Shown here piece after piece: positions 1 through 13,993 of a DNA stretch of 15,076 nt; position 1 is the stretch's first letter; the number at the start of each line of letters is the position of its first letter. The DNA comes from a virus (taxonomy: Duplodnaviria > Heunggongvirae > Uroviricota > Caudoviricetes), in the IMG/VR virus record IMGVR_UViG_2531839662_000027, positions 1 to 15,076 of that record. One strand, 5' to 3'. Made by a program: the position numbers and the translations under genes. The notes beneath the pieces were generated by a model. That model was not told the origin of the DNA. It did no database searches and worked only from the letters and a program-made list of their open reading frames with translations.

Positions 1-952
1 TTATTCAGCCTTAGCAAAAGTGGTCATAGTTGTTCCACTGAAAGTGAATGACCTGTCTGTAAGAGTAACATCCTGAATAGCAAAGTAATCGCCAACACCA
101 GCGCCATTTACATAAAACTCGAATATCTCAGATGTATTTTCCGGAATAATATTATTAGCAATATAACACGTAGATAAAGAACCATTTGTTGATGGTAAAG
201 TTCCAAATAGCGTTGCATCCGATGCAGCATATATCGAACTGCTTAAATAAATATTTATATCAACATTACTCTCATAAGTAACAATTAAGTACACCCGGTC
301 GTTAACCTTCCACCCTCTGTCTTTTATCTTAGTATTAAGTGATAGCTTGTTAGAACTAGGGGTCGTTACGGTATTAATGGTTATTTTTGCTCCTATTGAG
401 TTGTATCTGCTTCTGGTTACTGTATTACCAGTATTGTTCATTGTATAAAGGATTGCTCTGCTTTCTGCAAACGTCCTCATATTAATCTTGCCTAAACAAT
501 CTCCTTCCATAACTTGTGGGCCAGACACAGTTGCACCAATATAACAATTAGTAAATACAGCATGAGCCCTGTTGTCAGTGCTTGATGCAAGTAATGAAAG
601 TTTAAAGTTGCCCTGATCTGCAATCCAGCAACTATCAACCTTAACTACAGCATCATTGTCAAGAACAACAAACCTTCCTCCCTCATTGTAATATCCTACA
701 AAAGCATTTACACCGCTTATTTTTACTACTCCATCTGGAACCGTAAAGATATCGCCTTGTATCGCTTCGCCATAGTACCCGCCAACAATATTGGTCACTC
801 GGGTATTTAAGTACATGCCATGCCCAATGCCGAACTCAAGGTCACATCCAATTAAGCTTAAACCTTCAATAGGGGAAGTACCAGAAGCATAAAAGGCATA
901 TTCACCGACCTTATTTGATGCAAATCCACAGTTATTGAACGTTACGCGGTTG
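1..952 (-). pseudogene. Tailspike gene (P22 gp9-type), C-terminal portion downstream of the IS1 insertion; stop codon at 1-3
   Basis: ORF 1..966 (-) continues in frame from the 1719-2769 fragment once IS1 and one copy of the target duplication are removed; the residues encoded from 966 down to 953 come from the IS1 end. Repetitive Gly/Asn/Val-rich beta-strand-like composition is consistent with a beta-helix receptor-binding domain. Confidence 0.7.
945..952. repeat. Left copy of the 8-bp IS1 target-site duplication (CGCGGTTG)
   Basis: Identical octamer directly flanks both IS1 ends (945-952 and 1719-1726). Confidence 0.7.
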
Positions 953-966
953 GGTAGTGCATCCAA

Positions 967-1362
967 TTAGTAGAACATGTGTTTTTCGATAAACGCTCCG
1001 ATCACTTTTTCGTGGATCTCAACTGAGCGTGAGAAGCAGATTGTTTTACGAGCCAACCGCTTAATGCGGGTGCGTAGCGTCAGATTATTACGCTCAATGC
1101 GTTGGGTGAATATTTTGCCGGTCAGATGCTTATTCTTCGGCACCTCCCGGCCATAGCTGCCCCAGTCATCGCTGGTCAGCATGCCGATGTTGAAGGGTGT
1201 AAGCAGTGCCAGTAGCTCCCGGCACGTTTGATCGGTTCGGGGACCAAAAGTGTAGGCCAGTACACCGCCTGTTTTGGTGTTGTACGCGTACCAGAGCCAG
1301 TGTTGCCGGGCTTTACTGCCAACGTAGCTCCATTGCTCATCAAGCTCGCAGATAAGCGCCAC
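967..1362 (-). CDS. insB: IS1 InsB reading frame (normally expressed as InsAB' transposase by -1 frameshift from insA)
   Basis: Translation aligns by eye with IS1 InsB (motifs ELDEQW.YVG, YTQRIER.NL.LR, SFSKSVE.H.KVIG); lies directly downstream of insA in the -1 frame. Confidence 0.8.
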   Translation of the reverse strand: MALICELDEQWSYVGSKARQHWLWYAYNTKTGGVLAYTFGPRTDQTCRELLALLTPFNIGMLTSDDWGSYGREVPKNKHLTGKIFTQRIERNNLTLRTRIKRLARKTICFSRSVEIHEKVIGAFIEKHMFY

Positions 1363-1388
1363 ATCAGCATGGGCAACAGGCGAAGACG

Positions 1389-1661
1389 TTATTCGCTTTG
1401 GCGCGAGTTTTTTAAAGTCCGGATGACGGTGTTAATACCAATTTTCAGTGTCCTGGCGGTATCGCGAACCCCGGCACCATTAAAGGCCATTTCAGTTATC
1501 AGCTCTTTCATACCCGGCTTACGTGCTTGATAAGTATAAGTGAGCTGAAACACACGGTGGCAGTCACGGCAGCGAAATCTGTCACGGCCTTTAGGGTTCT
1601 GACCATGGCGGTAAACCTGAGCTGACTGACAACGGGGACAATGAATATTAACGCTGGCCAT
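1389..1661 (-). CDS. insA: IS1 InsA (zinc-finger transposition regulator)
   Basis: 90-aa protein with a CPxC...CxxC zinc-finger N-terminus and helix-turn-helix C-terminus, colinear with IS1 InsA (MASV.I.CP.C...); divergent from classical IS1. Confidence 0.85.
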   Translation of the reverse strand: MASVNIHCPRCQSAQVYRHGQNPKGRDRFRCRDCHRVFQLTYTYQARKPGMKELITEMAFNGAGVRDTARTLKIGINTVIRTLKNSRQSE

Positions 1662-1718
1662 GAGATAACCTCAAAAGCCCGTATTATACATCAGATTCAA
1701 CTAATTAGAGGCATCACC

Positions 1719-1726
1719 CGCGGTTG
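1719..1726. repeat. Right copy of the 8-bp IS1 target-site duplication (CGCGGTTG)
   Basis: Identical to 945-952. Confidence 0.7.
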
Positions 1727-2769
1727 TTAGCCCCAGCAAGGTGAACTCCGCGATTTGGCGCAGGAACAAAAGAACAGCAATCATAGGTATTAAGCCAGTC
1801 GTTTATAGTATAGAAGTTCGCCACCACGCCATTGATGAAACGACAATTATGGGTTCTTCCTAGGTGAACATATTGAATTCGGCAAGCATAGTTGGCGATG
1901 TTGTTCCCATCAACTGTAACGTGAGAGATAGATGTGCTACGTCTTATAGAGTCAGTTTCGTAGTACATGTTGACAACTGTCTCTCCAGTGAACCCACTCC
2001 CCGCAATAATGAATGACTTCTCAACGCCATCCCCGAATAGGTCAACAGTGCCTATTGTTAAATCAACTGGTGACTTAACATAGTAAGTTCCTGCAGGGAC
2101 AAACAGCCTCTTTCCTGCCGATAAAGCAACTGCTGCAGCAGCATTAAAGCTAGCTGAGTTATCTGCCGCTGGATCACCAGTAATGGGGAAAAATTGAGCA
2201 ACAGAAATATAATCTGCTACCGTCACTTCGTACCATGGCAAAGCAGGAGATGACGGAAGAGTGCCACTACCACCGGTGTAGATTTTATTATTATACCACC
2301 ACCAGTTATCAACATTAGATAACACCCCCTCCTGCCACACCCCCCCTAACGAGAAATCAAGACCGTAAGAAGTAGCTATCTGACTTAATGATAATGTTGC
2401 TCCTCTGTCAGAAGCTAATTCTTGCCTTAATTGGTCAGGGTCATACTTCAGCACATTAGGAAAATAGAACTGCTGTGCACCATACGCATCATAAACAGCC
2501 ATAGAATGGCCTTGCACAGTTACGAACTTGGCAATCTGTCCGTTATATACCGGATATCCAGCAGCGTTAATGATGATTGGTTGCGAAACAGGAACGTGAG
2601 AGCCGTCTTCGTTCTCCACATAAACCTGAATCTGGTTTTCAGGATTTACAGGGTCAGTGTCAATTTTACCGATATAAATTTTGCCATTGGCTACGGCTTT
2701 AAAAGAACGAGCCATAGTGAAGAGTTGCGAAGGCATGCTTACCACAACATTTGCGGTGATATCTGACAT
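1719..2769 (-). pseudogene. Tailspike gene (P22 gp9-type), N-terminal portion upstream of the IS1 insertion
   Basis: From ATG at 2769-2767 the protein starts [13 protein letters not shown]...[37 protein letters not shown]...[13 protein letters not shown]...NVLKYDPDQ, matching the P22 tailspike head-binding domain as I recall it ([13 protein letters not shown]...). The frame is cut one codon into the IS1 end. The track ORF starts 16 codons earlier at 2817; 2769 is preferred by homology. Confidence 0.8.
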
Positions 2770-3168: not shown

Positions 3169-5014
3169 TTACTTCTGGTTATCATCACTGTTCATCCAGT
3201 ACATGATGCCTAGCCTTGATATGGTTTTCTTATCTGATTCTGGAAGTGAGTTGTAAAACGAGCGCCAAGCAGAAGAGCGTCTTACAGTTGTATCAACGAT
3301 GCTTTCTGGTGCTTGTTTTACTGCCAGCCTTGCTGCTTTCTGGAATTCTGGTGAGCTAATTAGCTTTTCTGCAGATTCAATTGATTCAGCGCCGCCCATC
3401 GCCCTGATTTTGCTGGCGACTTTTGCCCCAATTTCTGACCCAGCAACAGCACCTACTGCACTGAACGGTCCTGACACAGTTGAACCAACCGCAGTGCCAA
3501 TGCGTTGGGCATGGTTAGCAACAAATTCATTTGCCGCAGTGACGCGATTAAACCGTTTTACGAACTCGTTTAGTCTTCCTGTAGTTATCTCGTAAGATTT
3601 TGCGTCTTTGATAGCCTTTGCGACCTTATATACATCGTTCAGACCTGACATAGTCTCTTTTGGTAAATGTCGGGCAAGATTGCGCATCTGCCCGTTTGCT
3701 AACATGTTTTGATACCAGTCAGCAAACCCTGCAGGATTAAAATCAGCGCCACGTTTTCCGTTCGAAAGCATATCCCGAAGACCTGTTCCCAGTAGCTCGG
3801 TTCTTAGCTTCCTGGACGGCGTGTTTTGCATCAATTCACGAAATCCTTTGGCATCGCCTTTCGACATTGCCTGTAGTGCTGTAGTTGCTTTGCGAGAAAC
3901 ATCACCGTTCAGCGTTCTGCCAGTTAGATTAATCATTTGCTCTTCCATGCTTTTTCGCATCTGAACAAGCCTCTGAGCAACTTCAAAATCACGTAATGCA
4001 TTTGTCTCTGACAGCGCCGCCTTTTGATCATCGGCGAGCGAACCGTAAAGCCTCGATAAAGCAGCGCGATCAGCATCTTTATATGGTCCAGAATTCTTAT
4101 GAAGTGCATCACCAACAAGTCGTCGTTGCTTATTGAGATTTGCATAAGTTAATGCGCCGTTCTTGCCTGGATTAACTGCCCGAAAGACTCTCTTTTCAAT
4201 AGGGTCAAGGTTTTTCATCCCGCCAAGATCTTCTGCCACCTGTTTGAGCATTGACCTTGTTGATGGCGCATCAATTTTTGCACCTGCAGGCATCGCCTTT
4301 TCAACATTGCGATAAAGCTGGTCGCTTCGTTTCATCAGCGCAGACATTCTTCCATTGACCGTATCAATAAACTTGTCGCTCATACCAAGAGCATCTTTTG
4401 CACCGGAAACGCGATCAATTATCTCCCCCGCGCCCTGTGCTAGCTGCCTGATTGCTTCATTTTCCTGCACCTGTAGAGCAGAACCCGCACGGGACTTGAT
4501 TGCTTGCTCAACTGCCTTGTATTGCTCGTTCCCGGAAAAGTGTGAAGGGAGTAATGAATCAACATTAAGCCTTTCAGCAGACTCCAGAACTTCAGCCTGA
4601 GGATTGATATCTAGTTCATCAAGCGATGAAGCGAGATTTGGCCTTTTTTGTGCTGCTACTGTGCGAACGACTTCCTCTGGGTTCCTCGTCGCAGGCGTCA
4701 TTGGTACACCTTGTGCTACTCTTGCCTCTGCGGCATGAACCGCAGGATTTGTTGCTGCAGCGGCATCACCGGAGAATGGTGATGTTTCTGTTGGCGCCGT
4801 GGTCGCTCTCTGTGCAGATGTTTTATTGCCACTAATTATATTTGATGCACCACGAACACCACGGGTAACGCCATTTATCAGGCCATGCGTAGCAATGTTA
4901 AGTCCGGCATTAATAGCGGCATTTTCGGCAAAATCACCCCGTTGATTCGCCGCGTCAGCGAGAGAACCAATGACCATGTTTCCAGCTACACCTGCTCCAG
5001 GAACAAGATAACCG
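3169..5014 (-). pseudogene. Ejection (injection) protein, P22 gp16-like: portion downstream of the IS629 insertion
   Basis: 602-codon frame joins in frame to the 6325-6713 fragment when IS629 plus one CCG copy is removed, giving about 743 codons; last gene of the gp7-gp20-gp16-like series before mnt/tailspike. Confidence 0.55.
5012..5014. repeat. Left copy of the 3-bp IS629 target-site duplication (CCG)
   Basis: CCG immediately flanks both IS ends (5012-5014, 6325-6327); a 3-bp duplication is typical of the IS3 family. Confidence 0.55.
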
Positions 5015-5068
5015 TGAACCGCCCCGGAAATCCTGGAGACTAAACTCCCTGAGAAAGAGGTAAACAGG

Positions 5069-5395
5069 ATGACTAAAAATACTCGTTTTTCCCCCGAAGT
5101 CCGTCAGCGGGCGATTCGTATGGTTCTGGAAAGTCAGGATGAATATGACTCACAGTGGGCGGCAATTTGTTCCATTGCCCCAAAGATTGGCTGTACGCCG
5201 GAGACTCTGCGTGTCTGGGTTCGCCAGCATGAGCGGGATACCGGGGGCGGTGATGGTGGGCTCACCAGCGCTGAACGTCAGCGTCTGAAAGAGCTGGAAC
5301 GTGAAAATCGTGAACTGCGCCGCAGTAACGATATCCTTCGCCAGGCTTCCGCTTATTTTGCGAAGGCGGAGTTCGACCGCCTCTGGAAAAAATGA
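5069..5395 (+). CDS. IS629 OrfA (helix-turn-helix, leucine-zipper transposase N-terminal part)
   Basis: 108-aa ORF, IS3-family OrfA architecture; sequence recognised as IS629 OrfA. Confidence 0.9.
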
Positions 5396-6282
5396 TGCCA
5401 CTGCTGGATAAGCTGCGTGAGCAGTACGGGGTCGGACCGGTATGTAGCGAACTGCATATTGCCCCGTCAACGTATTACCATTGTCAGCAACAGCGACATC
5501 ATCCGGATAAACGCAGTGCCCGTGCGCAGCACGATGACTGGCTGAAGAAAGAGATACAGCGCGTATACGATGAAAATCACCAGGTATACGGTGTGCGTAA
5601 AGTCTGGCGTCAGTTGTTACGGGAAGGTATCAGAGTGGCCAGATGCACTGTGGCACGTCTCATGGCAGTTATGGGACTTGCCGGTGTTCTCCGGGGTAAA
5701 AAGGTCCGCACTACCGTCAGCCGGAAAGCCGTTGCCGCAGGCGACCGCGTAAACCGTCAGTTCGTGGCAGAACGACCTGACCAGCTGTGGGTGGCTGATT
5801 TTACTTACGTCAGCACATGGCAGGGCTTCGTCTATGTGGCGTTTATCATTGATGTGTTTGCCGGATACATCGTGGGGTGGCGGGTCTCATCGTCTATGGA
5901 AACGACATTCGTGCTGGATGCGCTGGAGCAGGCGTTGTGGGCCCGTCGTCCGTCTGGCACCATCCATCACAGCGATAAAGGCTCTCAGTATGTGTCACTG
6001 GCCTATACGGAGCGACTAAAAGAAGCCGGATTACTGGCATCAACAGGGAGTACAGGCGACTCGTATGACAACGCGATGGCTGAGAGCATCAATGGTCTTT
6101 ACAAAGCGGAGGTAATACACCGTAAGAGCTGGAAAAACCGTGCAGAAGTGGAACTGGCCACACTAACGTGGGTGGACTGGTATAACAATCGACGATTGCT
6201 GGGAAGGCTGGGCCATACTCCTCCGGCAGAAGCAGAAAAAGCTTATTATGCTTCCATCGGAAACGATGATCTGGCAGCCTGA
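5392..6282 (+). CDS. IS629 OrfB (DDE catalytic domain; expressed as OrfAB by -1 frameshift)
   Basis: 296-aa ORF overlapping orfA by ATGA; integrase-like DDE region (..[16 protein letters not shown]..). Confidence 0.9.
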
Positions 6283-6324
6283 GTTCACAGATAAAACACT
6301 CTCCAGGAAACCCGGGGCGGTTCA

Positions 6325-6327
6325 CCG
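6325..6327. repeat. Right copy of the 3-bp IS629 target-site duplication (CCG)
   Basis: See 5012-5014. Confidence 0.55.
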
Positions 6328-6713
6328 CCTATTGACTCTCCAGCTTGCGCGTAGGGGTCTGTCGGTCTGTCTACTGGACGATAAACATCATCCAATACTT
6401 TTGGCCCCCCAAGCCCCTGACTGATTGCATTAATCAGACTTGCGCCACCCTGCAATACGTCAAATGGTATGTTTACCAGACCACGACCAGCCTGTTCTGC
6501 AATTTGCCCTGCACTTTGACCACCAGTGAGCCAATCGCCAGCTTGTTGCATCAATGATGGTTCTTCCCGTGTTGGTGCATTATTGGCCTGATTAACTGTT
6601 TGTTGCTGAACAGCCTGACCAGCAAAATACTCATCAATGGCGGTGCCAATATCTTCGGTGCTCGTACCATCAGGGAAGGTAAATGTCTTACCGTTTGCAG
6701 TTACTTTCATCAT
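6325..6713 (-). pseudogene. Ejection protein gp16-like: N-terminal portion upstream of the IS629 insertion
   Basis: Start ATG at 6713-6711 overlaps the stop of the upstream gene (ATGA coupling); native coding runs to 6325, and the last 13 codons of the track ORF (6285-6323) are read from the IS629 end. Confidence 0.55.
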
Positions 6714-8125: not shown

Positions 8126-8504
8126 TTAAAACAACGAGCCAAGCAATCCGATACCAGCACCAATGCCAGCGCCCCAAGGTGTTGATGTTCCCAAAAGGCT
8201 GGCAAGACCTGCACCGGCAATCGCACCAGACGTTCCGCCACTAATTGCTGTCTGAAGACTTGATGGTTTGTTGGCATTAGCAGCGGCAAGAGCTGCGCTT
8301 TGCTGTGCAATGCTGCTCATGTTGTTGGCGTACGTCTGCCCGGCGTTTGCCTGACCTTGCAGAGCACCAAGCCCAACGTTTGCCAGATTGTTGTAATTGC
8401 TCATCTGGTTTGATAACCAAGACTGACCGAGAGTCGGCGCGATCGTAGCCAGTTGATTGCTTGTGGCTGTCGAACCAAGTCCTCCCGTAACCGCGAGGCA
8501 TCGA
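8126..8504 (-). pseudogene. 3' fragment of a gp7-like ejection protein gene, 5'-truncated at the deletion junction
   Basis: The open frame runs into cro-derived DNA in a frame different from cro; the first 17 codons of track ORF 8126..8554 are cro DNA read out of frame, so no native start or RBS remains. C-terminus is Gly/Ala-rich and hydrophobic. Confidence 0.45.
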
Positions 8505-8582
8505 CTATACGCCGAGATCTTTAGCTGTCTTGGTTTGACCAAAGCGCATTGCATAATCTTTCAGAGTTATGCGTTGTTCCAT
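8505..8582 (-). pseudogene. cro: cro, truncated after codon 25 by a deletion junction
   Basis: Minus strand reads CATGTACTAAGGAGGTTGTATGGAACAACGCATAAC...AAAGATCTCGGCGTATAG: lambda cro RBS and first 25 codons (MEQRITLKDYAMRFGQTKTAKDLGV), then a stop where lambda has TAT CAA AGC; sequence 3' of 8505 is unrelated to cro. Confidence 0.8.
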
Positions 8583-8606
8583 ACAACCTCCTTAGTACAT
8601 GCAATT

Positions 8607-8676
8607 ATTATCACCGCTAGAGGTAAAATAGTCAACACGCACGGTGTTAGATATTTATCCCTTGCGGTGATAGATT
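8607..8676. promoter_or_regulatory. Lambda-type right operator: oR1 (8609-8625), oR2 (8633-8649), oR3 (8656-8672), with pR (minus strand) and pRM (plus strand)
   Basis: 17-bp operators TATCACCGCTAGAGGTA, CAACACGCACGGTGTTA and TATCCCTTGCGGTGATA match lambda oR1/oR2/oR3 with one change in oR1; pRM-like TAGATA (8648-8653) and TAGATT (8671-8676) precede a leaderless cI ATG at 8683; pR -35/-10 read on the minus strand at 8635-8630 and 8612-8607. Confidence 0.85.
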
Positions 8677-8679
8677 TAA

Positions 8680-9396
<717 letters not shown>

Positions 9397-13825: not shown

Positions 13826-13993
13826 ATGAGAGGACTTGCATACAATCCCGGCATTCTTCCGGCAGAAATGATTATTCGCCAACGCGTAAAGCCAATGCCA
13901 TCGAGAGAGGAATTGCTAAAGAGAAAGAGTTTCGGTTCTGTTAATGACAACAAATATCTGAATGCGATGTGGCGTAAAGGAGGCAAGCAGTGA
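13826..13993 (+). CDS. Possible small ORF (55 aa, basic)
   Basis: ATG preceded by AAAGAGGAA at good spacing; below the ORF-track cutoff. Confidence 0.3.

Follow-up and report, generated by a model that had tools for sequence, protein, structure and literature searches.

In the stretch of viral DNA analysed here (the window; 15,076 nucleotides), a widespread IS1-family element has, with a probability of about 95%, transposed into a tailspike gene that belongs to a P22-like prophage remnant; the event would be recent and most likely neutral. The inserted sequence would be a copy of an element of 766 bp that is widespread in E. coli and belongs to the ISEc30/IS1N subgroup, and it would have entered the tailspike gene at codons 349–351. 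Following the established mechanism of IS1, staggered cuts made by the transposase 8 bp apart at CGCGGTTG, and their subsequent repair, would have generated the direct repeat that flanks the element. The insertion would have truncated the tailspike to an N-terminal fragment of 351 amino acids and orphaned the C-terminal 315 codons. The site appears to have remained unchanged since then, with both repeats intact and no flanking deletion or inversion, and because the head, lysis, and replication modules would have been lost earlier, the event most likely represents neutral decay. It is an event of an ordinary, well-understood kind that is already known, with nothing novel in it; its significance extends little beyond annotation, and no biological question is opened or closed by it. 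The coordinates of the features are given in Table 1.

Table 1. Features of the disrupted tailspike locus and of the second insertion sequence in the window.
Feature	Position	Strand	Remarks
Tailspike 3' part, codon 349/350 to stop TAA at 1-3	1..952	minus	without native start
Target-site duplication CGCGGTTG, copy at IRR end	945..952		abuts element directly
IS1-family element, ISEc30/IS1N type	953..1718	minus	766 bp; transposase co-directional with tailspike gene
IRR GGTAGTGCATCCAATTAGTAGAA	953..975	plus	element's other terminus
InsAB' transposase, 231 aa after -1 frameshift	967..1661	minus	stop TAA 967-969; Pfam and NCBIfam matches
insA, 90 aa, zinc ribbon and HTH	1389..1661	minus	Pfam Zn_ribbon_InsA, HTH_Tnp_IS1
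Predicted programmed -1 frameshift site TTTAAAAAAC	1407..1416	minus	register TTA AAA AAC in insA frame, as in IS1
IRL GGTGATGCCTCTAATTAGTTGAA (read on minus strand from 1718)	1696..1718	minus	upstream of insA; 18/23 match to IRR
Target-site duplication CGCGGTTG, copy at IRL end	1719..1726		abuts element directly
Tailspike 5' part, codons 1-350	1719..2769	minus	Pfam Head_binding 1-113, Pect-lyase_RHGA_epim 194-311
Second IS, 1310 bp	5015-6324	plus	100% identical to copies annotated IS1203/IS629

Structure of the Inserted Element

All the defining features of the IS1 family that were examined are present in the region 953–1718: its size, terminal inverted repeats of ∼23 bp that start with GGT, an insA/insB' frameshift arrangement, three Pfam domains, and a short target duplication. 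On these features, we assign the region to the IS1 family. Both terminal inverted repeats begin with GGT and agree at 18 of 23 positions. When a -1 shift at TTTAAAAAAC was introduced in the conceptual translation, an open InsAB' frame of 231 amino acids was obtained, and identical copies of the element carry the PGAP label “programmed frameshift.” The InsAB' protein matched the Pfam families Zn_ribbon_InsA (PF03811, E = 2.8e-21), HTH_Tnp_IS1 (PF12759, E = 3.5e-27), and DDE_Tnp_IS1 (PF03400, E = 1.4e-75), as well as the NCBIfam model transpos_IS1 (NF033558), for which the score was 261 bits against a cut-off of 100. These results agree with the first-pass annotation of the window, in which a 766-bp element with IS1-like ends, insA and insB, and an A-run frameshift motif had been described.

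Target-Site Duplication

The same annotation had placed identical octamers at 945–952 and 1719–1726, and this was also the case: CGCGGTTG occurs at these two positions only, when both strands of the whole window are considered. When the whole window was shuffled, 9 of 200 shuffles contained at least two copies of CGCGGTTG, but this is a weak and uninformative null for an octamer, and a position-specific null was used instead. The probability that the 8 bases just outside both IS termini are identical is 4^-8 = 1.5e-5. At the other independent sites occupied by identical copies of the element, the duplication was 8 bp long at four of five sites and 9 bp long at the remaining one (1/5), and no target duplication was found at the flanks of the pMAR2 copy of ISEc30. 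Judging from these sites, an 8-bp duplication appears to be usual for this element and no peculiarity, and the present insertion provides one more example of 8-bp duplications for the ISEc30/IS1N subgroup.

Read with IRR on the left, the duplications of the identical copies are CGCGGTTG, CGCGATTT, CGGAAGAT, CCGGACTTG, AGATTTTT, and AATATTTC. Several of them are G/C-rich at the start and T-rich at the end, which may reflect a target preference, in a sample too small to judge.

In silico Excision and Natural Empty Sites

The first-pass annotation had predicted that removal of the element and one repeat copy would join the two tailspike ORFs in frame over about 664 codons, from the ATG at 2769 to the stop at 1–3. 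Excision of 766 + 8 bp produced exactly this, a 1995-nt ORF of 664 codons plus the stop codon, with no frameshift or premature stop. The reading frame also stays open when +2, +5, +8, or +11 bases are removed. In-frame restoration alone has a 1-in-3 chance of occurring and is therefore not decisive, whereas natural empty sites are. The excised sequence of 2126 bp was 100% identical, without gaps, to the genome of E. coli UMNF18 (NZ_AGTD01000001.1, 2882519–2884644). A BLAST comparison of the window with the UMNF18 locus gave three blocks, each with 100% identity, and the tailspike flanks overlapped by exactly 8 bp on this reference (locus positions 13945–13952). Furthermore, the 52-bp junction was identical at 52/52 positions, with a single CGCGGTTG, in five genomes: UMNF18, O141:H4 P13-6, ST12468, VG48B2, and ETEC4090. 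The restored protein of 664 amino acids was identical to the UMNF18 protein WP_001280408.1 at 664/664 residues, and the corresponding values were 662/664 for P13-6, 654/664 for ST12468, 655/664 for VG48B2, and 562/664 for ETEC4090; the protein alignments with these five empty-site genomes contained no gaps in the 60 residues that flank the junction on each side.

The identity of the natural empty sites rules out a later IS-mediated deletion or a rearrangement at the ends of the element, in line with what the first-pass annotation had claimed, as well as any further duplication, and we interpret the insertion as a simple transposition whose 8-bp duplication has stayed intact. Deletions and inversions are common consequences of IS1-family elements, and the region that contains the window is rearranged and rich in IS copies, so that recombination between two IS copies or a deletion adjacent to one of them might be considered as the origin of the present arrangement, with the octamers matching by chance. 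However, the chance of such a match is the 1.5e-5 given above, and the flanks are exactly contiguous in the five natural alleles, with nothing added or missing. This explanation is refuted by the empty-site identity, and the probability that we assign to it is negligible.

The window derives from a draft whole-genome shotgun contig, in which a copy of the IS could have been put into the tailspike gene by the mis-joining of contigs that end in repeats. In this contig, moreover, the tailspike end is connected to att-lambda and ybhB-bio, which is not the case in UMNF18. A mis-join would not, however, create a perfect 8-bp duplication, of the length typical of the element, at both termini, and we regard an assembly artefact as highly improbable. 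Simple transposition into the tailspike gene remains our reading of the site.

One of the genomes with an empty site differs in the organization of its tailspike. Its receptor-binding part is that of the window tailspike (98.9% over 1633 nt, with an identical junction region), but lies within a protein of 763 amino acids (NZ_CP122620.1, 1501–3792) that has a different N-terminus and is annotated as glycosyl hydrolase family 28-related. This protein illustrates how tailspike modules are exchanged among phages of different types.

The Disrupted Tailspike Gene and Its Products

In the restored protein, residues 1–113 matched the Head_binding family over the full length of the profile (PF09008, E = 2.8e-67), and residues 194–311 matched a pectate-lyase-like family (PF12708, 37.1 bits against a cut-off of 27), in a predicted beta-helix. 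No NCBIfam model matched the tailspike, and in a sequence search of the PDB only the head-binding domain was matched, by N-termini of the Sf6, P22, and HK620 types. The genomic context corresponds to the late/immI region of a P22-like genome, with Arc/Mnt repressor, gp16, gp20 (Inj_translocase), and gp7-like genes adjacent. By its domains and neighbors, the disrupted gene is classified here as a P22-type tailspike.

The first-pass annotation had suggested a comparison with the intact tailspike genes of related P22-like phages. This was possible only in part. When the restored tailspike protein was searched against 50,697 phage records, none of them matched it over its full length; the matches were confined to the N-terminal 120–290 residues, and the best of them was Sf6 (49.5% over residues 1–293). 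The full-length type was found in E. coli chromosomes only, in six complete genomes in these searches. E. coli chromosomes, which carry intact alleles, were therefore used as the empty-site witnesses.

The insertion point lies at codons 349–351, between …GANN and RV…. The 5' ORF continues into the IS, where it gains one extra Gly before it ends at a TGA (1714–1716) inside IRL. The resulting 351-aa product consists of the head-binding domain plus approximately the first third of the predicted beta-helix. It retains the native start, the upstream region, and the full head-binding domain. On the other side, the insB' stop TAA (967–969, minus strand) is in frame with the orphaned 3' fragment and immediately precedes it (…HMFY, stop, LDALPNRVTF…). 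The TTG-started ORF of 321 amino acids reported by gene callers exists because this stop is in frame, which is a 1-in-3 coincidence. The ORFs at 1–966 and 1714–2769 would be better annotated as one IS-disrupted tailspike pseudogene.

Prophage Remnant and Effect of the Insertion

In the annotation of UMNF18, the host element is a remnant of ∼13 kb, in which the gene order is intS (frameshifted), tailspike, an arc-family gene, gp16-like (frameshifted), gp20-like, a truncated gp7-like gene fused to a truncated cro, C2-type repressor … recT … torI. This annotation of the remnant includes no head, lysis, or replication genes, so the tailspike had lost its use in making particles before the element inserted. 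The insertion probably cost this already defective prophage nothing and most likely represents the neutral decay of a pseudogene.

The truncated gp7-like gene, a “DNA transfer protein” gene, and the truncated cro to which it is fused lie at about 8126–8680 of the window, according to the annotation of the identical UMNF18 locus. This fusion marks one large deletion, in which the head, lysis, nin, and replication modules were lost and ∼13 kb was left.

The disruption might instead have a function, either as a reversible IS-based switch or as a selected truncation that yields a head-binding fragment with a role of its own. The features retained by the 351-aa fragment would suit such a role, and precise excision would restore the gene; but a prophage without head genes offers no cognate particle to which the fragment could bind, and an insertion found on one contig only gives no sign of selection or recurrence. 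We consider a functional disruption scarcely credible. The broader proposal that the split tailspike is not inert, because an expressed 351-aa decoy interferes with the assembly of superinfecting P22-like phages or because the IS-excision enhancer IEE makes the element a reversible switch by promoting its precise excision, is very doubtful. If the decoy existed, it would exclude superinfecting P22-like phages with the same conserved N-terminal domain; if the switch existed, an intact 664-aa tailspike would be regenerated and could be captured by recombination with incoming phages. Neutral decay remains the preferred interpretation.

A Second Insertion Sequence and the Corresponding Site in UMNF18

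The second IS of the window is flanked by a 3-bp duplication, CCG, at 5012–5014 and 6325–6327. It splits a P22 gp16-like ejection-protein gene on the minus strand into two fragments (3169–4977 and 6285–6713), and removal of the IS together with one CCG restores an ORF of 743 codons.

At this IS1203/IS629 site in UMNF18 (L001, about 17241–17252, corresponding to 5015–6334 of the window), the IS is absent but its first six bases, TGAACC, are kept. UMNF18 also lacks 10 bp of the right flank, and the gene is hence annotated as frameshifted. Imprecise excision of an IEE-like kind could have left this scar, or a repeat could have been collapsed in the assembly.

Age and Distribution of the Insertion

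Outside the two IS insertions, the window aligned with 12,988 bases of the UMNF18 reference at 100% identity; the aligned blocks are 952, 3302, and 8742 bases long and have the 8-bp repeat in common. In 0 of 5,426 complete E. coli genomes was the IS-containing query covered at ≥ 80%. When the exact 351-aa and 321-aa split products were looked up in a large protein-position index, both were found on one contig only (GCA_000194535.2, AFAB02000119.1, the draft assembly from which the window derives), in look-ups by exact sequence that would miss a copy differing by one residue. The first-pass annotation had called the insertion relatively recent, and the zero differences in ∼13 kb of flank relative to UMNF18, together with the absence of the insertion from the 5,426 complete genomes, support this description. 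We infer that the event was recent on the scale of strain divergence, and the data fit a strain-private insertion. The host belongs to the pig-ETEC UMNF18 lineage of E. coli, an IS-rich lineage of the pig-ETEC type, and the insertion site provides a clean, datable strain marker within this UMNF18-like porcine lineage.

UMNF18 is the only empty-site witness with 100% identity, and its scar at the second IS site is suspicious: IS copies may have been collapsed in its assembly or excised from its genome. The four other genomes make the empty site independent of UMNF18, whereas the dating still depends on it. The insertion could be older than proposed, if the element was already present in the common ancestor with UMNF18 and was later excised precisely in UMNF18, for example with the help of IEE, which would regenerate a single CGCGGTTG. 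In a report that cites Kusumoto et al. (2011), IEE is mentioned as occurring in ETEC and EHEC and as promoting the excision of IS1-, IS30-, and IS3-family elements (10.1101/2023.06.07.543989). The second IS site of UMNF18, with its 6 remaining IS bases and 10 missing flanking bases, resembles an imprecise excision scar, although it may equally be an assembly artefact. On the other hand, the site is also empty in the four more diverged genomes, so the empty state is ancestral for the gene, and the exact look-ups place both split products on one contig only. We therefore consider the older insertion unlikely, and favor a recent insertion in the lineage of the source strain.

Comparison With Known Prophages, Tailspikes, and IS1-Family Elements

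The remnant shares its location with the KplE1/CPS-53-type remnant at argW (intS … torI, next to dsdC), since the identical UMNF18 remnant is flanked by argW-intS and torI-dsdC. Of this arrangement, the torI-dsdC-dsdX side is retained in the source contig. Unlike the KplE1/CPS-53 type, the content of the remnant is P22-like (tailspike, arc, ejection proteins, C2-type repressor, and recT), and the tailspike side in the source contig abuts a lambda-type attR and ybhB-bio rather than intS-argW.

To the left of window position 1, the source contig (L011, 5770–7056; L022, 10967–20966) continues past the tailspike stop with 101 bp from the 3' end of intS, beyond which lie a lambda-type sib/P-arm/core GCTTTTTTATACTAA and then ybhB-bioABFCD-uvrB. 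The tailspike end of UMNF18 abuts the full intS-argW. This difference in the left flank may stem from an inversion that involved the prophages at argW and att-lambda and would be roughly symmetric about the terminus, or from a difference in assembly.

With the tailspikes of the P22/Sf6/HK620 type (PDB 7sg7, 8tvr, 2xc1, and others), the window tailspike shares the N-terminal head-binding domain (residues 1 to ∼120, E = 1e-45 to 1e-70), which is followed by a predicted beta-helix. As in the P22 type, it adjoins arc/mnt and the gp16/gp20/gp7 ejection-protein genes. Its receptor-binding part, in contrast, has no close relative among the 50,697 phage records.

The first-pass annotation had described the element as a divergent iso-IS1 rather than classical IS1. 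The second half of this description holds, because the nucleotide identity between the element and IS1A of E. coli K-12 was 56.9% in a global alignment, but at this identity “iso-IS1” appears to be a loose label. The element was closer to the pMAR2 copy annotated as ISEc30 (98.6% nucleotide and 96.5% InsAB' amino-acid identity) and to a copy annotated as IS1N (92.6 and 95.7%, respectively), where both names rest on the PGAP annotation of the matched copies and not on ISfinder reference sequences. In ISfinder practice, isoforms have > 90% nucleotide/> 95% amino-acid identity, and both the ISEc30-labelled and the IS1N-labelled copies exceed these values. By this comparison, the element would be a distinct member of the IS1 family, nearest to the ISEc30- and IS1N-annotated copies and not a classical IS1, and it is better labelled an ISEc30/IS1N-type IS1-family member than IS1. 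Full-length copies with 100% identity are present on many E. coli chromosomes and plasmids; the best match had ≥ 99% identity in 269 records, and 1301 of the 5426 genomes contained some match. A search of the literature on IS1N and iso-IS1 yielded passing mentions only and no fuller descriptions.

The ISEc30 copy of plasmid pMAR2 of E. coli O127:H6 E2348/69 (PGAP label; NC_011603.1, 85990–86755) shares with the window copy its length of 766 bp, the frameshift site, the first 40 bases at the IRL end, and the last 60 bases at the IRR end. The two copies differ by 11 nucleotides and 8 amino acids. Unlike the pMAR2 copy, the window copy is 100% identical to the more abundant variant WP_085949012.1, for which the PGAP label is only “IS1 family transposase.” IS1N is a divergent IS1-family element known from Shigella. 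The copies named IS1N by PGAP (on pEc1675 and a K. oxytoca plasmid) have the length and organization of the window element, but diverge from it by ∼7% at the nucleotide level, and the IRR ends are …GGAAGCATCACC versus …GGATGCACTACC. Classical IS1, represented by IS1A, shares with the window element the ∼23-bp inverted repeats starting with GGT, the order insA then insB', a -1 frameshift (at TTAAAAAAC), the Zn-ribbon, HTH, and DDE_Tnp_IS1 domains, and short duplications of 8–9 bp. Apart from the low nucleotide identity, the two differ slightly in length, 768 bp for IS1A versus 766 bp for the window element, and in the target duplication, which is mostly 8 bp for the window-type element versus the textbook value of 9 bp for classical IS1.
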